Part shown: piece by piece, positions 4,890 to 61,911 of the stretch
Position numbering within the stretch: position 1 is the stretch's first letter
Layout: every line of letters begins with the position of its first letter
From: Flaccisagitta enflata
Lineage: Eukaryota
Reading direction: 5' to 3'
Assembly (NCBI GenBank): GCA_965153355.1
Contig: OZ231126.1
Span: 37,882,001 to 37,946,000, forward strand
DNA: 64,000 nucleotides
The notes under the pieces: model-generated
What the model was told of the DNA's origin: nothing
The model's database searches: none
The model's input: only the letters and a program-made list of their open reading frames with translations
Position numbers and translations under genes: made by a program

Positions 4890-5094
<205 letters not shown>

Positions 5095-14425: not shown

Positions 14426-14623
<198 letters not shown>

Positions 14624-23982: not shown

Positions 23983-24915
23983 GACAACCACAATGACGAC
24001 GACGATTTCGGCGACGATAACGACGCCAATGACGACCAAGACGATAATGATGACAACCGGATCTTGGACGATGACGACGCCAATGACAACCAAGACGATA
24101 ATGATGACAACCAGATCTTTGACGATGACGACGCCAATGACGACCAAGATGATAGTCATGATAACCAGATCTTGGACGATGAAGACGCCAATGACAACCA
24201 AGACAATAATGATGACAACCAGATCTTTGACGATGACAAAGCCAATGACGACCCAGACAATAATGATTACAACCGGACCTTTGATGATGACGACGCCAAT
24301 GATGACCAAGACGATAATGATGACAACCAGATCTTTGACGATGACGAAGCCAATGACGACCCAGACAATAATGATTACAACCGGACCTTTGATGATGACG
24401 ACGCCAATGATGACCAAGACGATAATGATGACAACCAGATCTTTGACGATGACGACGCCAATGACGACCGAGACGATAATGATGACAACCGGATCTTTGA
24501 CAATGACGACACCAATGACGACCAAGACGATAATGATGACAACCAGATCTTTGACGATGACGACGCCAATGACGACCAAGACAATTACGATTACGACCAG
24601 ATCTTTGACAATGATGACCAAGACGATAATGATGATGACCAGATCGATGACGATGACGACCAATACGATGATGATGACGACCAGATCTATGATGATGACG
24701 ACCAAGACGATAATGATGATGAGCAAATCGATGACAATGACAATCAAGACAATGATAATGACGACCAGATCTTTGACGATGACGACCAAGACGATAATGA
24801 TGATGACCAGATCTTTGACGATGACGACCAAGACGATAATGATGACAACCAGATCGATGACGATGGAGACCAAGACGATAATAATGACAACCAGATCTAT
24901 AACGATGACCACCAA
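23983..24915 (+). repeat. 54-bp minisatellite (about 11 units, then shorter 39-42-bp units); one frame reads DDDDANDDQDDNDDNQIF repeats
   Basis: GCCAAT recurs at 24025, 24079, 24133, 24187, 24241 and onward (period 54). Confidence 0.9.
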
Positions 24916-24950
24916 GATGTCTCCTTCTACACGCCTTTAGGCGTCTTGGG

Positions 24951-30210: not shown

Positions 30211-30440
<230 letters not shown>

Positions 30441-31866: not shown

Positions 31867-33042
31867 TATATATCATGAAAGATTATCCATTCAGTTGTTG
31901 ATAATGGTTTTTCACGCTAGGGCCGCTGCATCAGTATGCGTGGAATCCCTGCTATTGGGATAAAATGAAAAGAGAAATTATGGAGGGAACAAAAAAAAAC
32001 GCGCAAAAATATTGGGAAAGAAAAAAAAAGAGAAAAAATGCAAAAACTGGCATTTAATTCGAATTTTGAAGATTCAGTTCCCCTCCAAAATTCTCGTAGA
32101 TGTGACGTCTGGGTTTTTGTTTGTCTGTCTGACTCTCTGTTTGTTTGTTCGGCTTTTTCTGTCTGTTCCTTTCTTCCTATCAGACACTCAAGATTCTTTA
32201 GCCTTTTTGCAATTCTCCATTCATAGTTTCCAAGGTTATGGAGGCAAAATGAAAAAAAAAGCTTGAAAAGAAGAGAAACAGAATGGCACCATGTCTACGG
32301 AGAAAAAGAATGTAAGAAGTTTGAAGACATTCAATAAAACATCGTCAAGAAACTCAAGTAGTTCGCAAAAACAATTCCGCAGTCCAGTGATGCTACAGGA
32401 GCAAGATCAAGTATTGAAAATCAAACTCGTTTTGAATTAATCTTTTTCCAAATCATGTTGAAAGAGTTCATTTCCGTTCGTCCGTCATTGTGTTGTTTTT
32501 CGTTGGACAAATCCCCCGGCGTACATGTAGAGCCATTGTTACGGGCAACTAACCAGGAAATACAGTAGATCGCGTCTAGACTTGAGATAACGGGGGCATG
32601 CATTGTAGGAAAAAGAATGAAGCTAAGGCACTGATATTTGGAATATAAACTAATAAGATAATATTTCATTGCCCATGATAGTTGGTTACCATGGAAACGC
32701 ATTTTCATGTATTTACTCTAAAATATCAACATTTTGAGGAAATTTTTAAGGGAACATTGTTAAAAACAAGTTTTCTAGAACTTTCCCACAGTATGTGCTG
32801 TCAGAATATCGCTTGTTCAGCGGTTGCTAGGAGTTGTCACACATGGATATGCTCACTAGCTATGGCCAAATGAGCGATATTCTTACAGAACATATTGTGG
32901 GAAAGCTGTGTAGCACATTTGATTTTAAGCAATGTTCTTTAAAAAATCTCTCAAAATATTGATATCTTAGCGAGAATACATGGAAATGTGTTTCCATAGC
33001 AACCGAGTATCATATGAAATAAATCATTCTTTTAATAGTGTA

Positions 33043-33831
33043 TGTGACATTCTTCACATTCCCCACCATATGCAGGCCTAGAAGCGCTCGATCGGACGCA
33101 TTCGACTCCGCGGATCCCGAAGAAGAGGAGGGGCTCTCTCGCCATCGAAAATCCAAGATGGCGTCTGCTCGACTGCAGAGTGGAGGAAATCGAGGAAGAA
33201 GGAGAGAGATCTTCGATCGACGGAGGAAGGGGAGGAACGCGCGCGCGCACCGGAAGCGCTGACTTCCGGTTGAGGATTGATGAACTATATCTCCTCAACC
33301 GCTTAGAGGAGAAAAGACTTCGACCCCTCTATCGAATTCCCACGACGTGACGAATCTATTTATCATTGTTTCATTGCTGCCAAATAATTTCAAATCTCGT
33401 GATGTTTTGATTCATTTTTTGTTATTTCCAGGTTAAGTAAAAGTAGCTTCCCTGACTTTCTTACTGACATTCGATTACACGATCTCAGTTAAAGACTCGA
33501 TTTTTGATGCTTTTTCCCCGACTTCCCTGCCCTGCGCCTAGATTGGAAACCGTTCGACAACATCCGTGTAAGTCCTTGACCTTTTATCATTTTGGCGCCA
33601 TACAAGAGTATCCTTCATTGATGTACAGAGCTTGTCCTAACCTTTTTCCTTTTTCTCTGTCCGTCAGGATTCCACGAATAGACTGATTTCGCGGACAACT
33701 TGACCGCTCATCTCAACAATTCGTTCTAAGCGGGTGTGCGTTCCAAATCATTAGCGCAGCTACGCAGTGGAGTCAGTTCTCGCGATTACGCATCAGGAGC
33801 TTGCTAAGAAACTAGACGCTAAACGATCTCA
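33043..33831 (+). repeat. 5' LTR (789 bp)
   Basis: TGTGACATT...CGATCTCA; by eye identical to 44690-45479 except one T-run indel (~33590) and one G/A substitution (~33606). Confidence 0.97.
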
Positions 33832-33843
33832 ATTCGTGGAATC
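33832..33843 (+). promoter_or_regulatory. Putative primer-binding site of non-tRNA (self-complementary) type, ATTCGTGGAATC
   Basis: Directly abuts the 5' LTR, lacks the leading TGG of tRNA PBSs, and is the exact reverse complement of 33668-33679. Confidence 0.7.
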
Positions 33844-33875
33844 AAAAACCATCAACGATCCACGCAACGTCAACG

Positions 33876-36800
33876 ATGTCGACCGCCAACAACAACGCCA
33901 ACGCCGACGCGATGTCAATGCCGCCACCTTCGCTGCCCAATCAACGCAGAAAAGCCTTTCGGCCAACCGACTGCGTGTCCGTCGTTTCCGACTCATCCGT
34001 CTACGCGGGCGCAATGGACCCCGTGGCTACGACGCTTCGCGGATTACGAAAGGCGCTACGCAACACGCGCAACGCCTACATGTCGGCGTTGAAACAAGCC
34101 GATACCCTCAACGACGATGATATATTGGACTTTTACCAAGATATGGACTGCCTTCGAAAGGAAGTGTGGTTGGCGGCGTGGCGACTTGTCAACCAGACAA
34201 AGACTTACTCACATGCAGAGTCGACCAACAACCCCGACAAAGCGGCGTCACTGTTATCGACGGCCGAAAGCTCATTGACGGAAGTACGGAAACTGTGGGA
34301 CCAATCATGCTTCCACGACAAAAACACTTTTGCGTCGCATTTATTCCTGCCGACCTACCACGACATCCACGACGAGTCACCGGAGACTGGAGCAAAACGC
34401 GCTCTCGAGATGACGATGGGGTCGTCGACGCATTTCGTCCAGTCCCTTTCACGACGACGCAAATCGACGCCGAACACGACCGGCGACGATGGAGACGCGG
34501 GAGAGGACGACTTGCCCGTCGGTACGGAAGCAGCGAATCTCAATGCAGCGGATCAACGTCACAACGCGCCGCCCCATACGCCAGGCGCGATAGAAGACGC
34601 CGAGCAGATACGTATAAACTTTGAACCTCCGACGCCGGTGACGCCGGCGAGGTCGCGCTTCTTGTCGGCCAGACGACGCGATGGAAACGTCATGGCCGAA
34701 CGACGACGCCGACCTCCCTCCAGGCGCCGTTGGCGGCGCCCCTCCCACACAAGATCTTCTCAACATGCTACAGCAGTCGATTGTCGACGGCGACAAAAAC
34801 GCTCAAGGCGACGCGATGGTGCACGTCGTCCAACGTCTTGTCAACGACGTCAACCAAGTTCGACGCTCGGTGGCGAGAGAAGCACGCGCAAATACGCGAT
34901 TCCGTCTCAGCTCGCAGTCTGTATCTCAACAACGCGAAGAGAACGCCCGGCAGTTGACGGCAAACATCGCATTAGACGCAGCCGTTACTGCCCGGACAGA
35001 CGCGGTCACGGCCGGAATTGACGAGAGGAAAAGAAGGGAGGAGGAGGAGAGGAGGAAGAAAGAGAAGGAGGAGGAGGAGGAAAGACAACGCATCCACGCT
35101 GAAGAAGTGAGAAGGAAGGCAGAGGAGACGAGAAAGGAGCAGGAGGAGAAAAGGAGGACGAACTTGAAAAACAAGATCGCACAGGAGAAAAGAGAGAAAG
35201 AGGAGAGAGAGGAAAAGAAAAGGAAAGAAGCAGAGAGGAAAGCAGAGGAGGAGAGAAGGAAGGCGGTGGCAAAAAGAGACGCGGAAGAAAGAAAGAGGAT
35301 GGAGGAGAAGAAAAGACGCGAAGAAAAGAAAAAGGAGGAAGAAAAGAAAAGGAAAGAGGAGAGGAGGAGAGGAAGAGGAGAGAGGCACAAAAGAAAAGCC
35401 AGCAGAGACAACTACCTTCCAAAACGCCACCCCCAGCCGCACGTGAACATCCTCTCCACGAGCAACTGCGCACGAGACAAGATGCAGCGGAGCAAGAAAG
35501 AACGCGATGGATCACGCGGACGCAATGGCAAGGGTCCAACAATTGATCAGCGACCTCAACCTGGAGGACAGTGTCGTTTTGCAGACACGTGCTCCACCGT
35601 GTAAATCGACGCCGCCATCACCAAGCTCACCCATCATCGTCCGCCAGATCGCGGGTGATCTTCCAGCTCCGCAAGCATCCCGAAATGCACGCGGGAGTCA
35701 GCGGCCCCTGGTCGACGACGTCTTCGATGACGAGGGGTTCGAACGCGTCGACAGACGGAAGTCGAGGAAGACGCCGCCCCCAACGCCGTCGCCTCCTACG
35801 TATCAAAGACGTCAAACCGGAAGTGACTCCGCGCGAAATGGCCTCGCGCATTCGCAGTCCTTCGCCGAGAGGATGAACGCAGCCTCTTTCATCGACAACC
35901 CAATCGCCTACGACGCCCGCGTCAGAGCAAAGGACGTGGGATTGAGGGAAATGCGCGCAGCACGTCCAAGAGAAGCGTATGGATACCTCGAGCCGATCGA
36001 CTATATCATTGCCAAGTCTAAATTCGAAAATGCCGCCTCCAACATCGAGCTAGACGAAATCGACAAAGTAACTGAATTGGCCAATGTCTTCGCGAATCCA
36101 GCGAAGGAAATTATCGACGGTCAACAACTCATCATCAAGGCGCACAACATGCGCCGTGTCTACAGCACCTTGTGGAGACGCCTGGACGAGATGTTCAACA
36201 CGAGCGCCAACCCATTCCAATCGGCCGTCGACAGCATCTGCAGGAAAGGAAAGGTTCCGGAAAACGATATGAGAGCCCATCAATCATTGATTGGCACGTT
36301 GTACAAACTGGAAAACGTCGCAGAATTGCTGAATGTACCTGGAGAGTGTGATCGTGACGTCCACATCCGCCGCATCATCAACGCGAGGGTGCCACACATC
36401 TCGACGGACTATTGGAAAGCGAGCGCGCGTGAACAAGCTCGCCATGGCACGGCTTACGGCTTCCAAGAACTCATCGAGGAGGTGAAGCATTGGGTGTCGT
36501 ACAACAACCTCAAAGAACCAACACGCATGGCGCCAAACCAACGAAGGTTGCAGCGACTGCAGTTGGTCCGGCGACGTTTAAGGAACAGCTCGTCAACTCA
36601 CCTCCGAAGCAGCAACCCAACGACATCTGCAATATTTGTGGAGGTCGTCACAATTCTCATTCGTGTCAACGTTTTGGAAGCCATCCCATCAGCAGAGGAT
36701 CGTGTGAAGAAGTTGGCGGAGAAACGTCTATGCTTTCATTGTTTCTGCCCAAACCATTCGGCGCGCGACTGCAAAGACAAGCCAACATGCTCATCTTGCA

Positions 36801-36997
36801 ATAAGAGACACGCAACTTTGCTGCACGACCGCCAATTCAAGCCAAAAGGGAATGGAGAAGGAATCACGTTCAAGACGCCGAATGCCGCCGCATTAGCCGC
36901 AGCCGCTGCCGCCGCCAAAACCGTTCCTCCAGCGCCCCCAAGCAGCTCGTCGACGGATGACTCTGCATCTGATGAAGGAAGAGTGATGGAGGCGTGA
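33876..36997 (+). CDS. gag: BEL/Pao Gag, about 1040 codons, interrupted by ~5 single-base frameshifts
   Basis: ATG 33876; E/K/R coiled-coil at 35020-35400; helical core with LWRRLDEMF; knuckles CNICGGRHNSHSC, CFHCFCPNHSARDC, CSSCNKRHATLLH (36627-36826), the triple-knuckle pattern of BEL/Pao. Confidence 0.85.
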
Positions 36998-39900
36998 CTC
37001 GCTGCCACCTCCGCGATGAGGACGGTGGTCGCGAGGATGATGTCACGCGACCGATTGTTCCTGTAAAAATCACCAACGCATCGACGGGCCGTTCCACCGT
37101 AGTGTTGGGGATGATTGACAGCGGTGCGGATTGTGACGTTTTATCGCTTCAAATCGTTAACAAATTAGACTTACCAACTGAAAAGATGCTGATGCGCGTG
37201 CATACGGTCAATTGTGAAGTGGTGGAGGAGAAAGTTTTGGCGTCCTTTATCCTTTCATCGATTGACGAGGAATACAACGTCCACATCAGCAACGCACTAA
37301 CGGGAGAGTTATTGACGGGTGAAGCTGATATTGCTCCATGCCAACGCGACTTCACAAATCAATCTCATCTTCGCGATATTCCATTTCCAAAAGCAAATGG
37401 TCCTGTCCAATTGATCATCGGCGCCGCCCATTACGACGCGACGATGCCTGTGGAGGCAAGAAGAGGTCCATCAGGATCTTTGACAGCCTTCAGATGCGGT
37501 TTTGGATGGACTGTAGCAGGGAAGAGTGGACGAAGATCAGATGATACCGCTGTCATTAACGCAATCCACGTGGATAACGTCGCATTGAGCAAATCTCTCG
37601 ACCGCATGTTCTATCACGACTTCGCCATTGTGTCGGAGGAAGAAATGGGCCAGTCTGAAGAGAATCGTCGCGCGGTGAAGCGGGTGATGGAGACGATATA
37701 CTTCGACGAGAAACTCCAAAAATACGTCGTGGGACTTCCATGGCGCTATGACAAGGAGAAGATCATCGAGATTATCAAGTCTGTCAACGCACGCGCGATG
37801 ACGATTAAGAGGACAAAAAGTCTCCGATACAAACTCTCAAATAATCATGACCTCCGCGATCGCGTCTTCAAAGAAATGGACAAATTTGTGGATACGGGCG
37901 TGGCGATTGAGATTGATCCGACGAATGACGACGCAAGCATCTCATCGCCCCACTGGTACTTACCCATCCATGTGGTGGAGGAAAGAAATAAAACGCGGAT
38001 TTGTCACGATGGACGCGCGGAGACTGGCGGCATTTGCCTCAATGAACTACTGATTGGAGGTCCGAATATCATGAACGTCTTGACTGAAGTTCTTATGAAA
38101 TTTCGCCTTTATAAAATCGGTCTGATGACTGATATAAAGGCGTTCTTTCATAATGTCCGCGTCCATCCTGAGGACGCGGACACGTTCAGATATATGTGGT
38201 TCACTGACAAAAGCATGAGAGAGGCAGTCGTGATGCTCTTCTTGGCGCACATTTTTGGATCTGTGTCATCGAGTCTCGTCACCAGCTATGTTTTACGCCA
38301 TCACGCGGAGAAGATCAAGCCCGACTTCCCGAAAACGTCTACGAAATGTTGAGGCATGCCTTCTACGTTGATGACGGCTCTGGTGGTGCGGATTCAGTCG
38401 ACTAAGCACTGCAGTTGAAGCAGGATCTCATCGCCGCCATGAAGAGCGGCGGATTTACTTTGACTAAGTGGAAGTTTAACGCGGTGGAGGTGATGGACGA
38501 GATCCAATGTCGCGGTCACTTGAGCGCCCAACTTGAGGAGCCGACGAAGGTCTTGGGAGTCCAATGGTTGCCGTCGACGGACTGCTTCATCTTCAGATGC
38601 GATCCAGAAGCATGCAAGAGGGTGGCAACGACTCCTCGCGAATTGGTCTCCATGCAAGCCGACAACTATGATCCACTGGGATTCACAGCGCCCCGCGCCC
38701 TTGAAGGGAGGAGGTGTCTTCAGTTGACGAGAGCTTCCGAGAAGGGATGGGATTCGACGATGGAGGAGGCGTTAATCAAACGTTTCGCCAAATGGTACTC
38801 TGCGACTCCATTGCTGATCCAAATTGAAATTCCGCGCCACATTGAATGGGGCATTGTGAAGGCCGTTCGACGAGAAGTTCACATCTTCTGCGACGCCGCC
38901 ATCCCTGGTTTGGAGTAGTGGGCTATTGGTTGGTGGAAGATGAGGATGGAACAATCTGCTACCATTTTGTGCGCCTAGGCTCACGTCGTCCCTCTTGATG
39001 CGTCAAAAGCGTCGCACCACAACTCGGTGCCGAGGTTAGAAATGACAGCGGCAGAGAAAGCGGTGAAACTCAAACTTTTCATCAAGAGGACCATTCCAAA
39101 GGTGACCGAGGATATGGTGACGCTCTGGTCGGATTCAGAGGCGGTGCTGAAGATGATTTTCGACCATAAATCTAAACGTCCGAGCTTCTTCGCAAACCGA
39201 CTTTCAAAATCCACAGCGGCTCAAGCGATTCTCAATGGAGGTGGGTTGATTCGGAGAATAACCCCGCTGGACTATTGTTCGCGGGGTATTGACGCCAGCG
39301 ATAAAGAAAAATGGGACATCTTCCATTTCGGTCCGAAGTTTCTCTACCTTCCCAAATCTGAGTGGCCGGTGATGAATATCGCGACGGCGCCGGAGGCGTC
39401 AATCAACGCCGTCGCGACAGAAACGGTGGAGGAAGAGGAAGGAGAGAAGGAGAAGGAAATGTTCGCCTATGCAGTCGCCGCCCGTCGCCAGGAGTGGGTG
39501 GCGAAATTGCGTTTGATCGCCGTGATTGTGAAGTGCGCGCAGCGATGGAGACAGAAGGTGAAGGCAAAAACTAGAGCAGCGGCGACGACGCTGCCAAATC
39601 CATACTCTGTATCTATGGCTGAATTGTACGACGCACAACGCCGCTTGATCAACGCAATCCAGTTCAAACATTTCCATGGAGAATAACTAAGTTGAAGCGG
39701 TGGGAAAAACGACGCCGCTCATCAACGACGCCGGCGCCAAAGTGATCTGTAAGACTCTACGCCATCACAATCCGGTTGTCGACGAGAAAGGAACGATGCG
39801 TGTCGGGAGCAGACTTGTGAATGCGGATATTGGCCATGATGAAAAATACCCGATGATTCTCCCGTCGAAAGATCCAAACGTCGCTTCTCTGATTCGCCAT

Positions 39901-41002
39901 GTCCATCATCAGGATCTTCACGCAGGCCCAAAACACGTCTTGTGCCAACTGCGACGCTTTGTGTGGATTCTTCGAGGTCTCCAGGCGGTAAAAACAGTCA
40001 TCCACCATTGCGTTACGTGCCAAAGGAACTTCAAAGATCCTATGAAGCAGCAGATGGCGCCTCTTCCTCAACGTCGGCTCATTCCAACGGCGCCTTTCGA
40101 GGAGGTGGGACTCGACTGCATGGGTCACTTCCTGGTGAAACTGAACGGAAGGGCGGATCATAAGGTCTGGGCAGTGGTGTTTACCTGCATGGTTTCGAGG
40201 GCGGTGCATGTGGAGGTGTTGTTTAAAATGGACACAGAGGCAATGATCAACGCCATCATTAGATTCGCAGCGAGACGGCAAACGTGCGTCGATTCATATC
40301 AGACTGTGGCACCAACCTGGTTGGGGCAAATCGCGTCATGAAGGAGGAGATGCAGTCGTGGAACGCGTCGTCGACAGTGGCTCTGCAGCAGCATGGACTC
40401 CAATGGGACTTCATTCCTCCGGGGACTCCTCATTACGGCGGCGTATGGGAAAGGGTCGTATCCCTTTTCAAAAAACATTTGGCGTCCATTACTTCCGGTC
40501 ACGTGCTCCATTACGACGTCTTCCAAACGGTTGTGATTGAGGTGGAAGGAATTCTCAACCGTCGACCTCTCACGCCTTTGAGCGACGATCCTAGCGATAC
40601 ATCAGCGCTGAGGCCGGTCAACATCTTGCATCCGTCTACGTTCTCACACTCGTCGGCAGCTATTCTTCCTCCAAAGACCGGAAACGACGCCGTGGGAACG
40701 AGATGCCGATGGAGAAACGCACAGGCCCGCGTTGACGCCTTCTGGAAGGTATGGCGCGCCGAATACCTTCAGTTGCTGCACGCAAGGAGCAAATGGACAA
40801 AATCGGAAGTGAATATCAAAAAGATGCATTGGTCATCATCGTTGACGAGACGCTTCATCGGCATCAGTGGTCTTTGGGACGCGTCGTCGAAGTGGAAGGA
40901 TCTGGTGGTCATGTCCGGAAAGCACAGATCCTACGCCCCGACGGCAAGATTGTTCTCAAGGATCGGTCGAAGATCGTCCGATTGGAGCTGGATCCAGATT
41001 AA
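36994..41002 (+). CDS. pol: BEL/Pao Pol (aspartic protease, RT, RNase H, integrase), interrupted by several frameshifts and one in-frame TAA (38403)
   Basis: PR GMIDSGA (D at 37117); RT WYLPIH, KTRICHD, LNELLIGGP, DIKAFFH, FG, YVDD (38364-38375); RNase H HIFCDA, PRLE, WSDS, NPADYCSRG; IN H..H..C..C, GLDCMG, ISDCGTN, GGVWER, FWKVWRAEYL. Confidence 0.93.
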
Positions 41003-41547
41003 AAACGGATAAGTGTGAAGAGAGAGAGAGAAAGTAGACCAGAGAGAAGCACAAGTGTTTCTATTTGTAAAGACTATACATGAAAATGAGGATTTTTTCT
41101 CTCATGATTATTTTTTGGTCTTGTTTACTTTTTCTCAGTCGGTCTGTCTGATATGTCTTTGTGTGTAATGACAGGAGAGAGAGAGGTACATGGTGCCCCA
41201 GTCAGTTGAGAATGTCTGCATGATTGACTGACAATCTAAATTTTGCCATGCCATTTCAATCTTGTATTGACCATATAAAGGCATTTGTTCGTCATTTTCT
41301 TTTCCGTTTTATCCATATCATTGACTGTTGAGTGTGGAGGTCATTTGAGGCGCTGATCGAAGAGTTTTTATTTCTTTGTCTGCGTATACCATTTAATCTT
41401 CCTCAATGTTAATGGATATGTCTTCCTCTTTCCGTTTGGTTACATCTCGAAATCTGAATTTTCTCCAAAAACAGGCGTTTACACTATCTTACGCTAAAAG
41501 CTTCCCCTTGTCGGTATCGTCGCATAACTGTTGCAGAGAGATCCATC

Positions 41548-43875
41548 ATGTCGCAGCAGAACAACCAAGGCACGCCGGACGAGATCCGCGAAGCGAGGAG
41601 GCAGCGAATGGCGCAAGCCCAGGCCGATTTGGTGAGGAGTCATGAGGAGGAGACGAGGAGGATGGAAGAGGAGCGGGCGAGGGTGGAAGAGGAGAAGAGG
41701 AAAGTGGAGGAAGAGAAGAAAGACCCGGAGAAGAAGAGGAGGAGACAGGAGCAGGAGGCCAGGGCAGCGTCCCTCAGAGAACAACGCAGGCTTCGCGGGT
41801 TGCAACAGTCCGTCGTTGGAGGAGCTGATGACGTCATCGACGGGGTCAGCCATCTCTTCAACGACTCGTCTTCCGGCGCGTGGACCGTTACGGACCCTAT
41901 TCCTGCTCGGGCCCTCAACGCGTTCGATGCCAACGCCTTTGCCGACAAGCGCGCCGCCGGTGAAGCGCGTCGTCAAGCCGACGATGCGCTCCAGGCGGCA
42001 AGAAAGGCGAAAAGAGAACAAGCTGCCAACGAAAGCTTCGATACGGCAGTTTCGGGAGTGGAGGCGCTCATGGGGGAGTCAACGTCGGACTCCACCACGG
42101 ACGCCCCCCCGCCGCCACGCGGAGCAGAGGAAGTGGAGCGACAAGATTTGAATGACCCTGACAACTTAGACTTTGACGATGACGATTTACGACGACGACG
42201 ATGATGACGACTACGACTCAGGATGACAGTGAGGGCGATGATATGGACACTAACGAACATGACGGAAGGGGAGAGGGACTTCCCCCCGGGAGGTTGCTCG
42301 ACCCGCTTCTACAGGCCCCCAAGGGGTACTTACTGCTCCTTCTCTTGCTCCCCACCTGCCGCCGCCGCAGACGTCGCAGGCGGTCGTGGAGTCGCCGACG
42401 TTACAAGTAACGCCGGCCGCAGACTCGACCGCGCCGGCGCCGTTTCAAGCATCACCTGACGCGACGCTGGTGATCCCGCCGCACATCAGTGACCTGTCCT
42501 CCATCTCGCAGGAACAAGCTGTCGAATTGGTGAAGATCTACAACGCCCAAGTCGACGCCCTCATCGAGCGGAAGCACACTGCGATATACCACGACACGCA
42601 GCGTCGCTTACGCGCGGAGAGAGATGCTCTTCATCCACAAGCCGAGCGAAGAGCATATGTTCCGACGCAAAGAGTCAGAGACGAATTAGTCGAAGAGGAC
42701 GGAGAGATGGCGACGGTTGAAACACGCGAGACGCTCCAATTGTGCAAGATCATCAACATCAGATCTATTGGAGCAACGGCGGACATGGGAAATGGGACTT
42801 TGAGAGACATTTCCCGCGGAAAAGCCTCAAATCAGAGAAAAAGACGACGTGAAGGAGCCGCTCGTCGGATCGCGGAGGCTATTCGTTCGACCGGAAGTGG
42901 CAGCGATCAGCGTCAGACGCCCGCGACGCAGGATCCTCCACAACATCATCCGAGAGACGATCGACGAGCCAAAGCTGGCGCCAACAATCTACAAATCGAA
43001 GTGAGAGAGAAGAGACGTCGGGTGAGCAGGGGTGGACCGCCGGATGCATCCGCATCGCATCATCGACGGTGATGGATGGTCCCGCGAGATTACCACATGG
43101 TCCTGCTCCCCGGCCTCCTCCTCCTCAACGCCAGCGGTCACGTGACATTTCACCAATCCGTGTCCCAACCCAAACGATTTACGACAACGGATAATCAAGG
43201 TGGCGCTGGGGCAGCCGCAAATCTGCTCCCCCTCCTCCTCCTCCTGTCAACGACCAACAGCGACGAGAGGAGCAAAACGCCAACAAAAAGAAGAGGAATC
43301 GTCGTCCAAAAAGGAAGTCTGGGGATGCGTCGACGTCCAACAGGTCGTCAACGTCGACTGCATCCGCTTCTTCTCCTTCACATCGCCCTCCCCGATCGCC
43401 GGAAGACCTTCTGACCGAGGCGATGTTGGCCGTCGCCATCAAGTTGCCAAGTCATCCTCGGTCAAAGGATATTCAAAAGGTTGTAGACATTCTTCCGGCG
43501 GCATTCTATCCCAACTCATCTCCGATGGATCGCGCGATCTACGCTGCCGATCACGCCGTGGATAGAGCCAGATCGGCGAGGAAGCTCATCGAACAATACA
43601 ACTTTAGGATGAAGGTTGTCGGTGAGCACGACGCGAAAGTTGCTCAGATGGCCCAGCTGCTGTCCGACGCGAAGAAGGAAGCCGACCGCGTCCGCGCGGA
43701 GTTCTCTCAGCCCGATGGACAGATGCCATCGACTTCCGGGACTCAACGCCACTTCGCGTCGTCGAGCAACAACGCGCCACCTTCCGGCAGAAACCCCCCT
43801 CCACGCCACAGTAGGAAAGACGACGCGCCATCCTATCGTGGAGGAAAGGGCGGCAGGGGTAAAGGCCGGAAGTAG
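41548..43875 (+). CDS. Accessory ORF3 of the retrotransposon, unknown function, about 775 codons when ~5-6 frameshifts are bridged (track pieces 41548-42204, 42201-, 42386-43072, 43423-43875)
   Basis: GC-rich coding-like block between two AT-rich spacers; ATG in catcATGt; coiled-coil N-terminus, acidic and Pro-rich linkers, basic clusters, C-terminal RGG tail; no signal peptide or TM segment. Confidence 0.65.
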
Positions 43876-43990
43876 AGGGTCTCGTCGCCATGATCCCGGC
43901 CATCGTCTTCCCACTTCAATCGCGCGTATCATACCGACGTTTCACGTCGTCGCGGAAGACTAGCGGTTGATCATCCAATGGCGACTCGAG

Positions 43991-44997
43991 ATGCTTCCGG
44001 TGACGGACAGGCCGGCCGTCCTCGCTTCTCTAGAGGGCGGTCGGGGGAGGGGGTCCCACCGGGGACCCCCCTGCGACTCTCCCGCGTAAGTGTCGAGGGG
44101 TAGGGGGGGTCTTGAATTGCTCATGAATCAATTGTACCAAATTAGAATATTAAGCGTATGATTTGAGAATGAGAATCAGTTCTAACTCTCCTAATCCGTT
44201 TCTCCATACCCATTCCGGGTGTCAGGGACGTACGTGCTGGAGTGATGGACAATCCTAACGGGGCGTTGGTACGTAGTATAGTATAGTTTATACACTAGTA
44301 TAGGCCACTTAGCGTATAGTCTAATTATTTATTTCAGTCCATCATTCCCGTGGATCTAGTATCGTTACCTTTTTTCTTGTTTTAGCATGAAGACTGGATG
44401 CAGAATGGAGCAAGAGGAGCAATTCATAACCAGACCGTAGCGATAGCCCGGACAATCGACGGTGGTAGGTGTTTCTGCTCCTAGAACCCATTTTCTGAAT
44501 CGTCTTATTCGCGCGAGATCCACGATATTTATAATAGCGTCTTTGTAATATTTAAAAATTTTGTTTTTGAGATGAGCCCCGGATGTTGTCATAGCTTGTA
44601 AATTTTTAAAATGAACGGTATTCCCTGACAAGAAACTAGTTAGATACGAGATTTGAAATTTTTTTGGCAAATATTTCAAATGGGGGGACTGTGACATTCT
44701 TCACATTCCCCACCATATGCAGGCCTAGAAGCGCTCGATCGGACGCATTCGACTCCGCGGATCCCGAAGAAGAGGAGGGGCTCTCTCGCCATCGAAAATC
44801 CAAGATGGCGTCTGCTCGACTGCAGAGTGGAGGAAATCGAGGAAGAAGGAGAGAGATCTTCGATCGACGGAGGAAGGGGAGGAACGCGCGCGCGCACCGG
44901 AAGCGCTGACTTCCGGTTGAGGATTGATGAACTATATCTCCTCAACCGCTTAGAGGAGAAAAGACTTCGACCCCTCTATCGAATTCCCACGACGTGA
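43991..44997 (+). CDS. Hypothetical spliced ORF4: exons 43991-44085, 44226-44268, 44386-44464, 44723-44997 (163 aa, or 125 aa from ATG 44245); last exon lies in U3 of the 3' LTR
   Basis: Three GT-AG introns (GTAAGT..CTAAC..CAG; GTACGT..TTTTAG; GTAGGT..TGCAG) whose phases keep one frame open to TGA 44995-44997; exons GC-rich, introns AT-rich. Confidence 0.4.
44678..44689 (+). promoter_or_regulatory. Polypurine tract (AAATGGGGGGAC)
   Basis: G-run immediately upstream of the 3' LTR TG; preceded by hairpin ATTTGAAAT(44651)...ATTTCAAAT(44681). Confidence 0.8.
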
Positions 44998-45479
44998 CGA
45001 ATCTATTTATCATTGTTTCATTGCTGCCAAATAATTTCAAATCTCGTGATGTTTTGATTCATTTTTTGTTATTTCCAGGTTAAGTAAAAGTAGCTTCCCT
45101 GACTTTCTTACTGACATTCGATTACACGATCTCAGTTAAAGACTCGATTTTTGATGCTTTTTCCCCGACTTCCCTGCCCTGCGCCTAGATTGGAAACCGT
45201 TCGACAACATCCGTGTAAGTCCTTGACCTTTTATCATTTTTGGCGCCATACAAAAGTATCCTTCATTGATGTACAGAGCTTGTCCTAACCTTTTTCCTTT
45301 TTCTCTGTCCGTCAGGATTCCACGAATAGACTGATTTCGCGGACAACTTGACCGCTCATCTCAACAATTCGTTCTAAGCGGGTGTGCGTTCCAAATCATT
45401 AGCGCAGCTACGCAGTGGAGTCAGTTCTCGCGATTACGCATCAGGAGCTTGCTAAGAAACTAGACGCTAAACGATCTCA
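44690..45479 (+). repeat. 3' LTR (790 bp)
   Basis: Near-identical to the 5' LTR; followed by TSD GTGTA. Confidence 0.97.
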
Positions 45480-46837
45480 GTGTATATTCCAAATATTAGC
45501 CCACTAGCTTCATTTATTCTTCCATAATGCTTGCCCCCGTTATCTCAAGTCTAGATGAGATCTACTGTAGCAAATTCAGATTGTACCGAAGAAGCAATAA
45601 TATTTCTGCGGTTTCAAGTTTCTGGTATTATTGTGTTTTTCTATCCCAATTCATTTTTCGTTTCTTTCCTTCGAAGGAAAGACAGAAATCCAATTATATC
45701 CCACGGAGAATTGCTCCTGCTTGATGCGAAAAATGCACATTGCACAAATGAATTTGGCAAATTCCTTTGCCTTGCATTTTCCTTCAGGCTTCTTTTGCTT
45801 CCTTCTTTTTTTCTGTTTCTTTTTCTTTTTCTTTTTTCTTTGTGTTTTTTTTTTTCATGATTCTGCTTTTTATCATGTTTTAATCCCCCGTTTCTCCATC
45901 TTTTTTTATCATTCCATTGATATTTGATGCCTTCCTCTTCTTATTAAGCTTAAGCTCTCTTGTTATTTTTTCACGTTCTTTGCCATTTCACATCAACGTC
46001 TTCCGGTTTGAAGGTTATTACTAAAGTTTGCAGACATTCAAAAATCAAACAAGCTGACGATAGAAGTTAAACTGGTAGTGATGATAAAACATCACTAACG
46101 AGCCATGCTTCTCTCATAGTTCTCGTTGATATCTAAATTTGTACCTTCCGCTTCCGGATCCATCATCAGATGGGGAGTGGGTGGGGGTCCCTTCTTTATC
46201 CTAGACGCTGTCCCCTTCCACGCATATCAATCTCGCACCAGTCCGCCCCAGAGAAAAAACTCGTTCGCTCCTAGGGTGAGGCTACATCGTCAAACCAATT
46301 ATTTTGATGCTAGTCTACCACTTTCTACATTTAATCTGCCCATCTCCTTCATAACCCTGGAAAGACAGCAACGCAAAGCAAAGAGAAGAAAAGCAAAGAA
46401 AAGAGAAGCAAAGCAAAGCAAAGCATAGAAAAGAGGAGCAAAATAAAGTCAGTTAAAACTGTAACTGAAACAAAGCAAAATGAAGTCAATTAAAACTGAA
46501 ACTGAAACTCTGAAAAAGATAGGGAAAAAACAAGGGGAAAAAAAGAGGGGGGGAAAAGGGAGAAAAAAAAAGAACCGGAGTCATTGTATCTGTAGGTTTT
46601 CTCTCATCAATCAATGCCATCAACGTTTTTTCCTCTCTTTTTTCAAACGCTATCTTTCGGCGAGGGAGCGGAGAAGGGAGGGGGGGGGGTTGGGAAAAGA
46701 GGGGGCAATGGTGATGATTCAGCTCGCGTAGAATATATCCATCATTTTTGGGCAAAGAGACCCAAAACCGACAAAGCTTCATTATTTTTCGTTTTAACGA
46801 AACTCGAGTATCACCGCTTGTCCTCTCTATTTTAAGT

Positions 46838-48050: not shown

Positions 48051-49225
48051 AATGCCAATGACTACTGAATGGGAACAAAAACGAAAAGAAAATTGTGAGA
48101 GAGAGAGAGAAAAAAACATTTAAACGAGATGACCCGAGTTAATCCGCATCCAACTGGGAAACACATCGAAAACGGCGTGATTAGTAACGCCAAAGAACCT
48201 CCGCCTCATCAACGAATCTCCGCCTCATCAACGCACGTCGAATTTTTCCCTTTCTTTTCGTTTTTAGTCGCTTGCTGAGCGACTCCATGAGAGGGTGTTT
48301 CCGTAGTGCTGTCCGTAGGACGACAGGAGGAAGGTTACGCGAAATCAACTGTAAGAGTCTACTGAACTGTAATGCTCCTGCCGACCCACATTGCAGCCCC
48401 GGCCCACTAAAGCATTGCCCCTACCCAGTGCCCACTTACATTTCTATCTCGGCCCACCCGCAAGCGACTCCTCATTGGTGATGTAAACGGCCGTGTTCTT
48501 TGAATACTTTTTTTTTAGATTCATCTACGCATCTTTATGAGGGGCTTTATCCGTCCGTCTATCCATCCGTCTGTCCATTCATTCATCCATTGGTCGGTAC
48601 AATTTGCATGAGCTGAAAAATGGTCAATTGGCAGAGAATGTCTGTTTGTTCGTCATGGGAATGATGGATTATCTAACATCTTGACAAATGTGATAGAAAG
48701 ACGTGGACGCATCTTTGTCCCTTCGAGGTACTTGTTCCTTCTATTTTTCTTTCTTTCGTTGTGTATGACTTGACATCAGTGACGTCAGTGACGTCAGTGA
48801 CGCCGACAGTTGAGTAGAGATTCAATCTACCTCACGCTTACCGTTTGTTTTTTGTCCTTGATTGTCTGTCTCTCCGTCTGTGTTATGTCGTGTGTATCCG
48901 TTTATGTACACATCCTGTTTGGAGAGACATTTGTGAATATGAGATACACGGAAGAAAGTGACTCATAAGACTTCTGCCACGCTGACGCAACAACAGCGTC
49001 ATTTTCCGTTTTGTTGCGTTGCTATTCAATTCATGGCAATCCCACGACGAGGACGGGACGGCATCCAATATGGACTTACAGTCTCTTTTAGTCTTTTTCC
49101 GATTCTGTCTTTTTTCCACTTCTGTCCCTGTTTCTGTCTTTGGTTCTGTCTCTGATTCTGCTTTGTCTCGTTTTGTTTTGTCTCTGTTTCTGTTTTGTCT
49201 CTGTTTCTCTTTTGTCTCTGTTTCT

Positions 49226-49416
<191 letters not shown>

Positions 49417-52844: not shown

Positions 52845-53722
52845 GTCATCGTTGTCGTCGTCGTCATCGTCGTCGTCGTTCTCGTCTTCAACGTTGTCTC
52901 CGTCGTTGTCGTTATCATTGATTCGTTGTCATTATTCTCATTTTTAGGTGCGCCTTAGCACCTCTACAACTAGCTCTGTCTGTCGGTTGGTCGGTTGGTT
53001 GGTTGGTCGGTCACGCTCGAGTTGAAAATCTCGAATAGAAGAAAAAAATCACTGGAAATGATTCAGAAATATGCTAGGATGATTTTTAGATGCGGCATAG
53101 TACCTCTAAAAGAAGCTCTGTCCGTCCGTCCATCCGTTGGTCACGCTCGAATGAAAAATCGCTAAAAATGTTTGAAATCAATAGAAAACTCATATCGTTC
53201 GTCATTGATGATACTCGTAATTTCATACACTAATATAATCAGCTACGGTTAGGTCTGATAGAGCTGGTGATAGGTCTGGTGATAGGTCGGATAGAGCTGG
53301 GGATAGGTCTGATAGAGCTGGGGATAGGTCTGATAGAGCTGGGGATAGGTCTGATAGAGCTGGTGATAGGTCTGATAGAGCTGGTGATAGGTCTGATAGA
53401 GCTGGTGATAGGTCTGATAGAGCTCGGGAAAGGTCTGATAGAGCTCGGGAAAGGTCTGATAGAGCTCGGGAAAGGTCTGATAGAGCTCGGGAAAGGTGTG
53501 ATAGAGCTCGGGATAGGCCTGATAGAGCTAGGAATGGTCTGATTGAGCTAGGGATAGATCCGATGGAGCTAGGGATAGCTAAGGATGAATAACGCCCGGC
53601 GTGATAGGTCTGATAGAGCTAGGAAAGGTCTGATAGAGCTAGGGATAGGTCTGATGGAGCTAGGGATAGCTATGAATTAATAACGCTCGGTGCACCGTCT
53701 TGGCCCGTGTATCCGGCCTTTT
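52618..53722 (+). mobile_element. Composite of three head-to-tail HINE-like 5' modules ending in one 3' end; contains (CAT)n and a 21-bp array (GGTCTGATAGAGCTGGGGATA)
   Basis: TTTTAGGTGCGCC..GCACCTCTA at ~52618 and ~52941, TTTTAGATGCGG at ~53084; array at 53250-53690; GGCCCGTGTATCCGGCCTTTT end. Confidence 0.7.
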
Positions 53723-58624: not shown

Positions 58625-58832
<208 letters not shown>

Positions 58833-61024
58833 GCCCGCAATTTCTGCGGCCATCTCTATCATTCTCTTTTTTCGGCGTTTCAAACTCGCCTCTCCATGTT
58901 TCCTTGCTTTTGCAGATTTCATTTTTTGGGCAGCGGCTCCGAAGGGGTTAATGACCTATGCTTTCTCCTCCTCGTCCTCCTCTTATTCTACTATGCTGCT
59001 CCCTGGCCTAAATCCTCGCCCCAAGGCAGAAATAGCAGCCATGAGGACAAAGTCCTAAACACCAACCTTAGGGCTCAAATCCTGGCTATGGAGCCACGAG
59101 ACTGAAACCTATCTAGGCCCAAAAAAACAGACTAATGACCCAAATCCCACCTCAAAGGCCCCAATTATAGCCCAAATTCCAGTCTTGAGGCCCAAAGAGT
59201 AGTTTTGTAGCTCAAATTATACTCCAGAGACTATTTTCGCAAACCCTAAGGTATCTATCCCAAGCCAAAAGACCAAAGGCTTGCTCATGATTTATCAATC
59301 AAAGCATATGTTATTGGTCTTTTTTGAACTGCTGCTCAACTCAACATCTCATCCTCACGATCTAAATGATAACTAACGATTGGTTACCGCTGACCATCCT
59401 ACGCTTTTGTGACTACTCGTGTTAAAAAGTTAAGACGCGTTTTGATGTGGCGCGAAATAAAATCTCTATTCCATTCACCGTGTCTGTCCCTTGGTCCGTT
59501 GGTCCACTGTTTGCCCGCAATGATTTGTATTGATTGACGATTAGAAGGATTTTGTTCTGTTTTTGCAAAACCACGATTTGACTTGCGTAATAACACGTTG
59601 TTTCCGTTCCTCTACCCCTCGATCAGTTACGCGTACGAGCCACGAGGCCACTTAGTTTTTATTACCCCCAGCATGTATATATTCCTACTTAATTTCTTAT
59701 CATTTTTTCCCCAAACTTCTCCTTTATCTCGTTTCCTTTCTTTTATCTCTCTTCTTCCTCCTCTCTCCTCCTCTTCCTCTTCCTCTTCCTCCTCAGCCTC
59801 CTACTCCTCCTCCGTTTCCATTCATGTCTCCGAATTGTCTCTCCCGCGCTTCGCTTCGACGTCATCCTGAATAAAACATCGAGAAAAGAAAAAAAAACTC
59901 CAAACAATAAACAAACGCGCGAAAGAATAACAACGAATCATAAAAATAAAAAGAAAATATTCAGAACGTTATAAAAGAAAAAAGGAAAACGTCAAACGAC
60001 AAGAACGACGACGAAGACGACGACGATAACGACAACGATAACAACCACGACAAGGACAGTGTGGAGATACGCGCATATTTAACGAATAAGAAGAGAGAGA
60101 CAGACGGAAAAAAAATAATAACACGTTTTAGATTCCGGATATCAAAAGCGCGCGGTATTGGAAACATATCGGAGGATTTGTTTTCTTTTCTTTTTCTTTT
60201 TTGTTTCTTTCCAAATGTAATTTGATAAACATACTCGTTTACTATAAATTCATCCAGATACTAACATCAACCAAAAGAAAATTTCGTTATGCCGGACATC
60301 GTGCATGCGAAAGAGTAAGTGACAGCCGTCGTTACGTGTATTGGAAATTCAATGTGTCGTGTGTGCGTTTAAACAAGCGCGCGTTATTATTTTACCCACT
60401 CGTGTCTTCTACTTAAAACTGAGTCAAATTTATATGTGTGTGTATGCTCGTTTGTGTAAACCGAAACAAAGTCAACAACTTGTTAAAGAAAACAAAACAA
60501 AAACAAATGCGACAGATTTCATTTTCATGAATGAAAACAACGCCATAATTCTGTGATGCTTTATTCCGATATATGACGTCCCAAATTGTATAAACATCGA
60601 TCGTTTTTCTTTGCCATGATAAGACTTTCAAATGAAAAACAAAATCAAATGACAGAAAAAATTCCTTCGCGCGATGTTTGATTGATTGATTGTTCAGAAA
60701 CCTACAAAAACGAGGACAAGATAACAGACCCAAAACAAAAGGAAATGGGAATATAAACAGAACACACACAAAAAAAACTAAATGAATTAAAAAAAACAGA
60801 AAAAAAATCAAAGGGGGAGAAAAACTTCGCTGTGCGTATCTCTCTCTCTCTCTTCCTCCACTTCCGGTCTCTCTCTATCCACGCGCGACTTCCTTGTTTT
60901 TTTCTTTTTTGTTTTCGTTTGTTGTTGGAATTGTTGTTGTAATTGATCTGTTGTTTATCGGAGAGAGCTCTCAATGATTATCGAGGCGGAAGAACAGAAC
61001 CGAGAAATGTCCATCAATCTTTTG

Positions 61025-61340
61025 GCACATCCCGCCACTGGTAAGTCGTTCTCTGTCCAGACAGACTCACAGACAGATCGACACACAGATATACAGACAG
61101 ATAGACAAATGCACATACCGCCACTGGTAAGTCATTCTCTGTCCAGACAGACTCACAGACACATCAACACACAGATATACAGACAGATAGACAAATGCAC
61201 ATACCACCACTGGTAAGTCGTTCTTTGTCCAGACAGACTCACAGACAGATCGACACGCAGATATACAGACAGATAGACAAATGCACATCCCACCACTGGT
61301 AAGTCGTTCTCTGTCCAGACAGACTCACAGACAGATCGAC
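61025..61340. repeat. 86-bp minisatellite, about 3.7 units
   Basis: CCACTGGTAAGTC at 61035, 61121, 61207, 61293. Confidence 0.9.
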
Positions 61341-61911
61341 CAACAGATCCTTTCCCTCTTTTTCTATTGGTTCTATTTCACTCATTCCAATACAGTGAGT
61401 CATATACAAAACCCCGCAATAAAGAATGTAAAGGGGCTAACAAATTTCATCCACTATAGGCGGATTTCCGTCATTGCCAATATAGAAATTAAAAGAATTT
61501 GACATAGTGGGACCAAGTTTCAGACGGATTTCCATTACACTTGGATCCGTTTTAGCGGGGTTTAACTATACATGTATAGTATGGAAATGAACAATTAACG
61601 ACATTGCCGGTCTTTAATCAAAGACTTTAGAAAAATGTACAAACCGGTCCCTGAATCTCAACCAGAGGGATGAAAATGATGAATCCAAATTAAAAAAAGA
61701 TTCCAACCAGACAAATCAACCAATATCCACGCAAATTAAAGCTGAACTATAACAATGACAATTGTGACAGATCAAAAGATGATTTTCAAGTAAACAAATG
61801 GGACCTCGAGATTTCTTTACTTGTAGTAGATTCTATAAGAAAGCATCTTCATTTCACTTCCATGTTGAATCTTGCCGTAGGAAAAGCCGTAAATGTGGGT
61901 GTTTTTTCTTC

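Follow-up and report, generated by a model that had tools for sequence, protein, structure and literature searches.

An additional, non-envelope open reading frame follows pol in a complete BEL/Pao retrotransposon of Flaccisagitta enflata

The stretch of the Flaccisagitta enflata genome analysed here (the window; 64,000 nucleotides, assembly GCA_965153355.1, contig OZ231126.1, positions 37,882,001 to 37,946,000 of the forward strand) contains a complete 12.4 kb BEL/Pao long terminal repeat (LTR) retrotransposon, arranged as LTR, gag, pol, an AT-rich spacer, a third open reading frame (ORF3), an untranslated stretch, and LTR (Table 1). The ORF3 product is not an envelope (Env) protein, and we favor the reading, which we consider probable, that ORF3 is the third gene of a recent and complete element and encodes an orphan, soluble, charged, mostly disordered protein. 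Pfam searches of plus-strand pieces identified Peptidase_A17 (E = 8.4e-14), Integrase_H2C2 (E = 1.7e-7) and DUF5641 (E = 1.2e-7), and the assignment to BEL/Pao follows from these, as together they constitute the domain set of BEL/Pao Pol. The LTRs are direct repeats that start with TG and end with CA and have GTGTA on either flank, as in the paired LTRs of BEL/Pao elements (Belpaoviridae), and they are identical at 788 of 790 positions, with one gap (in a run of T) and one substitution between them. Because the LTRs are so similar and the target-site duplication is perfect, the insertion must be very young. The guanine-plus-cytosine (GC) content is 0.48–0.58 across 33–45 kb as against 0.31–0.48 in the host flanks, and no second copy of the element was found within the window. 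BEL/Pao elements are not known from outside animals.

Downstream of pol there are three stop-free pieces on the plus strand, in two frames, at 41458–42204 (248 codons), 42263–43072 (269 codons) and 43195–43875 (226 codons). Frameshift-aware alignment to intact relatives joins these into one reading that runs from an ATG at 41548 to a TAG at 43873–43875, has no in-frame stop, and spans about 772 codons as calculated from the coordinates. Six frame breaks, each of one or two bases, are located near 42187, 42215, 42291, 43058, 43180 and 43226. The GC content is 0.57–0.58 in the bins covering 42–44 kb, and in the approximately 235 bp directly past the stop codon (43876–44110) it is still 0.59–0.68 at all three positions, after which the DNA is AT-rich. 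A sequence-only reading of this DNA had described about 2.3 kb of GC-rich, coding-like sequence after pol, with fragments that join through single-base shifts at a density like that in gag-pol, and the ORF pieces and the alignment bear out the coding-like region. The joining is likewise confirmed, with shifts of one or two bases, and the similarity in density holds for pol (nine breaks and three stop codons in 3,984 nucleotides, compared with six breaks in 2,325 nucleotides of ORF3); for gag there are three frames in the ORF list, with no alignment to an intact relative. The question that it raised of a continuous ORF has a divided answer, as the frame is broken in the window copy and open in relatives of 761–817 amino acids (aa).

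Using the C-terminal piece as a query, five longer proteins (761, 768, 815, 471 and 555 aa) were recovered at E ≤ 1e-3 among 5,424 candidates, and a profile of these gave 10 matches among 8,000 candidates. An exhaustive HMMER profile search of 1.84 billion representatives yielded 14 proteins at E ≤ 1e-3, all of which are members or fragments of the ORF3 family from ENA, Logan and 'merc' records, the last (the source of P0007) being what we take to be marine metatranscriptomes. The 90% cluster containing P0001 has 82 members, and among the 15 listed, 11 are the full 761 aa, one is frameshifted (P0027, 463 aa) and three are 150-aa C-terminal pieces. The 11 full-length proteins sit on separate contigs of 2.5–10 kb, and 10 of these were examined in sequence (40 of the 82 cluster members were sampled). 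Two further clusters, cluster 2 (768/772 aa) and cluster 3 (815/817 aa), have an open frame throughout. The window reading is 93.4–94.4% identical to the eleven cluster-1 proteins compared, 79.9% and 78.5% identical to those of cluster 2, and 62.5% identical to cluster 3, and the start is conserved, with the N-terminal motif also present in P0002, P0003, P0010, P0012 and P0020. Judged from these comparisons, ORF3 is a small orphan protein family with an open frame of about 760–817 residues in several diverged lineages, its uninterrupted members coming from marine assemblies.

ORF3 is also present in contigs assembled from sequencing runs of 11 studies, the majority of these with the label marine metagenome. 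Contigs of six runs recorded as RNA cover part of the stretch (shares of 0.07–0.32), which carries little weight; any full-length element RNA would include the region. Searches for the DNA of the relatives gave 580 pattern matches in JGI metagenome contigs, six in IMG/VR and 33 in GTDB genome contigs, none of which was confirmed.

The pattern of substitutions indicates that ORF3 has been constrained at the protein level. The window reading differs from P0001 by 49 substitutions in 752 aligned residues. Five diverged members of the family have 217 invariant columns in common, and not one of the 49 substitutions is at any of these, where about 14 are expected with random placement; from these counts the chance of finding none is about 6e-8. 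The invariant columns have only four gaps, of which two or more coincide with frame breaks. Cluster 1 itself varies at 49 positions, and at 43 of them the residue of the window reading also occurs in a cluster member. Conservation is concentrated in seven blocks, each with a column identity of at least 85%, that are separated by poorly conserved linkers, as in a protein under constraint. Because the substitutions avoid all of the invariant columns, the lineage evolved as a protein until very recently, whereas the frame breaks do strike conserved columns and are therefore either recent lesions or technical errors. A frame of some 2.3 kb kept open in lineages so far apart is not neutral DNA, and on this comparative evidence ORF3 is a real gene.

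The nearest intact Pol found in the protein collection, P0044 (1332 aa; PF05380, PF00078, PF00665, PF17921 and PF18701), is 97.8% identical to the window pol in a frameshift-aware alignment. One of the three stop codons within pol lies beside a frame break, the reading is locally frame-shifted over a short stretch corresponding to P0044 residues 497–503, and the pol stop codon is at 41000–41002. There are about 20 point differences, two of which are stop codons and one of which is at a column invariant in ten Pols. At least 12 further intact Pols of about 1,300 aa (P0045–P0057), 37–53% identical to the protease and reverse transcriptase piece of the window, are present in similar assemblies, and their sequences point to a diverse BEL/Pao clade whose pol is an ORF of its own. 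At about 1,040 codons across three frames as read, the gag-like region is unusually long, and at approximately 35100–35420 it includes a low-complexity stretch, rich in E/K/R, that exceeds 100 residues; no Pfam family was found for the two pieces scanned. Duplication of ORF3 from the element's own gag was considered and rejected, the sole similarity being a low-complexity E/K/R match to the ORF3 N-terminal helix (41% over 53 residues).

Two explanations for the frame breaks are about equally likely. The first, which we place slightly short of an even chance, is that they are base-level assembly errors and that ORF3 and pol are intact in the genome. The insertion is very young, yet has 15 frame breaks over about 6.3 kb of coding sequence, all 15 shift the frame by one or two bases and longer indels are absent in comparison with relatives that are 94–98% identical, the single indel between the LTRs sits in a T run, and the ORF3 substitutions respect the 217 invariant columns while the breaks do not. 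However, long microsatellites in the window read as perfect, such as (TC)99 with 100% matches and 0% indels, giving no sign of a noisy consensus, most of the break sites are outside homopolymers, and pol contains two clean stop-codon substitutions. The second explanation, which also falls just under evens, is that the breaks are real, and that this is a defective copy or belongs to a defective sub-lineage mobilized in trans by the proteins of intact elements, with internal lesions that predate the LTR pair. Each round of retrotransposition makes the two LTRs identical again and passes internal lesions on, such that nearly identical LTRs can flank a broken interior, as seen here. The two nonsense substitutions and the change at an invariant Pol column are consistent with this, and the frameshifted relative P0027 indicates that broken ORF3 copies exist elsewhere. 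But it would be unusual for natural indels that all 15 are confined to one or two bases, the 15 intact relatives aligned share none of the six ORF3 breaks, and no ORF3 substitution is at a constrained column.

Table 1. Coordinates of the retrotransposon, its genes and the segments of ORF3 (positions are those of the window; P0002 is an intact ORF3 relative of 768 aa; pLDDT, predicted local distance difference test)
Feature	Position	Strand	Basis or remark
5' target-site duplication GTGTA	33038..33042	.	identical five bases at 45480-45484
5' LTR, 789 bp, TG...CA	33043..33831	+	788/790 identical to 3' LTR
gag-like region, three frames as read	33876..36997	+	ORFs 33816-35021, 34642-35604, 35447-36997
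pol (protease, reverse transcriptase, RNase H, integrase)	37016..41002	+	alignment to P0044 and Pfam domains
AT-rich spacer between pol and ORF3	41003..41547	+	sequence and GC by position
ORF3	41548..43875	+	frameshift-aware alignment to intact relatives P0001, P0002, P0003 and others
N-terminal E/K/R-rich long helix, preceded by conserved N-terminal motif	41575..41799	+	P0002 residues 10-70, pLDDT 82-89
Second helix	41929..42027	+	P0002 residues 114-146, pLDDT ~81
Asp-rich acidic patch, two frame breaks inside	42142..42263	+	net charge -12 to -13 per 40 residues, P0002
Pro-rich disordered linker	42276..42481	+	AlphaFold2 and alignment
Third helix, running into conserved block (P0002 333-360)	42509..42661	+	P0002 residues 310-350, pLDDT 74-82
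Conserved block, end of third helix	42578-42661	+	
Most conserved block, Arg-rich cluster	42806..42919	+	P0002 residues 409-446; putatively like a nuclear localization signal or RNA-binding motif
Conserved Ser/Thr-rich block directly past second basic cluster	43321..43371	+	
C-terminal conserved region ending in ~60-residue helix	43396..43701	+	helix at P0002 residues 652-711
Two conserved blocks before C-terminal helix	43396-43449 and 43492-43551	+	
Short conserved Ser/Thr/Gly motif	43714-43770	+	
Conserved Gly/Arg/Lys-rich C-terminal tail	43816..43872	+	conserved block 43816-43869
Untranslated stretch, ~815 bp, ending in purine-rich run adjoining 3' LTR	43876..44689	+	
3' LTR, 790 bp	44690..45479	+	paired direct repeat
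3' target-site duplication GTGTA	45480..45484	.	matches 5' copy

To describe the protein we used the intact relatives. An AlphaFold2 model of P0002 built with ten sequences has a mean pLDDT of 50.6, with 488 of 768 residues below 50, and its confident parts are all long single helices, at the residues given in Table 1. When the C-terminal 150 residues are modelled alone they form one helix (residues 34–94, about 60 residues, pLDDT 81–93), and a complex prediction with two copies of this helix region scored 0.01, a result that speaks neither for nor against self-association. Charge is strongly segregated along the protein, with the acidic patch preceding basic segments of +7 and +9 around two K/R clusters and a basic tail, and the six intact relatives analysed have isoelectric points of 6.3–6.7 and one to three Cys residues each. 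The protein is thus predicted to be soluble, highly charged and mostly disordered, with four or five long helices and three conserved K/R clusters. The order of segments that the sequence-only reading had set out (an E/K/R helix, an Asp-rich patch, a Pro-rich linker, two helical segments, basic clusters and a Gly/Arg/Lys terminus) agrees with this, as all are present.

Searches for remote homologues of ORF3, by sequence and by model, gave no significant match. No Pfam family was assigned to any of three window pieces (E ≤ 0.01) or any of the six relatives (E ≤ 1), the best sub-threshold match scoring 13 bits against a cut-off of 26.4. A sequence search of the PDB gave six matches with E of 0.65–0.8 and none better than 0.65, and there was no usable match in the ESM Atlas. 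Foldseek gave 226 matches in the PDB at E ≤ 10 and none at E ≤ 0.001; the top match, to the Arc C-lobe (a retroelement capsid-derived lobe; E = 1.9, probability 0.12), is not significant and carries no weight.

The spacer upstream of ORF3 is 545 bp long with a GC content of about 0.38, and contains several candidate expression signals. The sequence TATAAAG at 41274–41280 is a putative promoter element, and pyrimidine runs followed by AG at 41473–41474 and 41535–41536 are putative splice acceptors, after which the ORF3 start at 41548 is the next ATG. Three in-frame ATGs at 41406, 41412 and 41418 open an 80-codon upstream frame (41406–41645) that overlaps the ORF3 start, and their presence in an RNA would be expected to impede translation of ORF3. 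Because of these upstream ATGs, together with the TATAAAG and pyrimidine-run/AG sites, ORF3 expression probably needs a subgenomic RNA, which could be either spliced or initiated internally within the spacer.

What such a protein might do is suggested by its composition. The K/R clusters are of the classical nuclear-localization type and could direct nuclear entry, the Arg-rich block and the Gly/Arg/Lys tail could bind nucleic acid, and the long helices could support self-association; ORF3 may then act as a ribonucleoprotein (RNP) or chromatin-associated accessory or scaffold factor for the element. This proposal of a nuclear, nucleic-acid-binding, self-associating protein made from a subgenomic RNA draws on the disordered linkers and their short conserved motifs together with the helices, K/R clusters and tail; it is possible, but we hold it only tentatively. 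A different role for a real ORF3 product, as a chromatin tether guiding integration, a structural protein associated with particles, or a factor opposing host small-RNA silencing, is likewise no better than a doubtful prospect; the acidic patch with basic clusters, the tail, the multivalent disordered linkers and the long helices fit such roles equally, although no homology to a known tethering, suppressor or capsid domain was found among PDB sequences, Pfam or Foldseek matches. A more specific version of the nuclear proposal is that this is a 'complex' BEL/Pao element, in which ORF3, made from its own subgenomic RNA, is a nuclear regulator or scaffold that uses the Arg-rich block and the Gly/Arg/Lys tail (whose pattern may resemble that of histone H4 and H2A N-terminal tails) to bind element RNA or the machinery that modifies and reads chromatin, and so controls export, packaging or integration-site choice; this we regard as improbable. 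Of what the sequence-only reading proposed, a genuine third ORF that is carried by the element after pol and is not Env has held up; the suggested role of the product, as an RNA-binding or nuclear accessory factor, export factor or silencing suppressor, is compatible with the conserved K/R clusters and the Gly/Arg/Lys tail, and no homology or fold match points to any one role.

Two readings of ORF3 as something else fare poorly. That it encodes a fusion glycoprotein of the envelope type, like those of roo, Tas/Cer or mosquito BEL/Pao elements, is suggested only by its location after pol and before the 3' LTR and by its long helices, and is very improbable and refuted at the level of the tools used. 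In all six intact relatives the maximum 19-residue Kyte-Doolittle mean is 0.81–0.93 and there is no hydrophobic N-terminus (signal peptides and transmembrane segments were assessed by a simple hydropathy scan, with no dedicated predictor), the few Cys residues contrast with a Cys-rich ectodomain, a majority of P0002 residues are predicted to be disordered, and neither Pfam, PDB sequences nor Foldseek revealed homology to viral fusogens (F, gB, Gn-Gc or gamma-type). This concurs with the earlier view, formed from the letters alone, that ORF3 has no signal peptide, no transmembrane helix and few Cys, and does not resemble Env glycoproteins. That the region does not code for protein, or is a decayed remnant or a host pseudogene that the window copy alone has captured, is scarcely credible and is also refuted, since, notwithstanding the six interruptions and the propensity of GC-rich DNA to yield long chance ORFs on both strands, there are intact ORFs of 761–817 aa in at least three diverged clusters with many variants, the substitutions avoid constrained columns, and no named cellular protein is among the 14 matches in 1.84 billion representatives. 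Neutral evolution and a captured pseudogene unique to this copy, either of which the sequence-only reading had named as grounds for abandoning its proposal, are thereby answered in the negative.

Several points weigh against the reading that we favor, of ORF3 as the third gene of a recent, complete BEL/Pao element with an orphan, non-Env product. Because of its six frame breaks, the window copy cannot make the full-length ORF3 protein as read. The placement of other ORF3 copies behind a BEL/Pao pol is inferred from the window copy, the multi-copy clusters and a shared GC content. In metagenome assemblies a multi-copy element may be collapsed into its majority sequence, and the 'intact' contigs may not be single genomic copies. 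The pol stop codons (two among about 20 point differences) and the change at an invariant column show that there is some random change, real or technical. Finally, the functional part draws on composition and short motifs, and K/R clusters and Gly/Arg/Lys tails are common in unrelated proteins.

The window contains other repetitive sequences outside of the element. Tandem arrays at 24013–24917 have GAC/GAT-rich units with periods of 54, 42 and 21 bp and scores of up to 932; these translate to Asp-rich repeats and give spurious tblastn matches to the ORF3 acidic patch. The host flanks abound in long, near-perfect dinucleotide microsatellites, which lie at 4895–5092, 14428–14617, 30215–30440, 49215–49413 and 58627–58833, examples being (TC)99 at 100% and (GA)113 at 98%, among 78 tandem-repeat rows in the 64 kb. 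Tandem repeats are also present at 61025–61348 (86-bp units, 3.8 copies, 93%) and 53268–53690 (21-bp units, about 15 copies, 92%). There were no Rfam matches and no tRNA genes in the window.

Third ORFs have been described in other BEL/Pao elements, and in the literature consulted all of those named are of the envelope type. The roo element encodes an F-like protein, nematode and mosquito elements encode gB-like or Chuviridae-like proteins (PMC13524379), and the hookworm Atlas element has a phlebovirus-like Gn-Gc third ORF (PMC9094657). These resemble the window ORF3 in lying on the sense strand after pol and inside the LTRs (PMC13524379, PMC9094657). However, they are fusion glycoproteins of viral origin with a signal peptide, a transmembrane anchor and a Cys-rich ectodomain, whereas ORF3 lacks all of these and has no detectable relatives.

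Closer in kind are the extra genes of LTR retrotransposons of bdelloid rotifers, where ORF3s encode a GDSL esterase or a DEDDy exonuclease and an auxiliary role in the replication cycle has been suggested (PMC5408684). The likeness is that of a family-specific, non-Env extra gene after pol (PMC5408684), although the rotifer ORF3s, which belong to the Juno, Vesta, TelKA and Mag clades, are recognizable enzymes, whereas the window ORF3 has no enzymatic or globular domain and is in a BEL/Pao element. No SGNH or DEDD catalytic Pfam family was found at E ≤ 1 in any of the six ORF3 relatives. Plant LTR retrotransposons are reported to have a conserved ORF of unassigned function in a long region between pol and the 3' LTR (PMC7264820, PMC11963269); these additional ORFs are in other superfamilies (Ty3/gypsy and Ty1/copia) and other hosts, and have no known sequence relation to the window ORF3. 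In Drosophila, sORF1 and sORF2 of the MDG1 group are accessory ORFs of an Env-less LTR element with a dedicated role in its spread (PMC11952523), but sORF2 is a short transmembrane fusogen-like protein, as opposed to the predicted soluble, disordered ORF3 product. ORF3 does not fit a small fusogen like sORF2 or the FAST proteins, with its length of about 770 aa and its lack of a hydrophobic segment.

Complex retroviruses encode regulators such as Rev, Rex, Rec/Rem and the foamy-virus Tas and Bet, from 3'-proximal genes, with Arg-rich clusters and defined RNA or DNA targets. By analogy, ORF3 is similarly 3'-proximal, has a conserved Arg-rich cluster, and is probably expressed from a separate subgenomic message. 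The Rev- and Rex-type proteins are nonetheless much smaller (Bet aside) and have defined targets, and no homology of ORF3 to them was found; the Arg-rich block conserved in ORF3 is a motif that alone does not establish RNA binding. We found no literature on BEL/Pao elements with an ORF3 of this kind, with subscription journals, RepBase entries and supplements lying outside the scope of the search. Lying on the sense strand after pol and ahead of the 3' LTR, and conserved at the protein level, ORF3 is an additional non-Env ORF of a class known in other LTR elements, here in a BEL/Pao element and encoding an orphan disordered protein.

From the extra genes of LTR retrotransposons one can see how new abilities are acquired, infectivity, membrane targeting and RNA processing among them, and a large non-Env ORF3 conserved across diverged lineages implies a function required by the element beyond those of gag and pol. 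The window copy also illustrates that a gene with broken frames can still be proved coding when its substitutions avoid constrained columns, and it serves as a warning for annotation, in that an ORF in the env position need not be env. ORF3 is a concrete candidate for accessory-protein biology in an invertebrate retroelement, and if the 'complex' reading were true, no non-Env accessory regulator would have been described before it in the Belpaoviridae, and it would have evolved independently of retroviral Rev, Rex and Bet.

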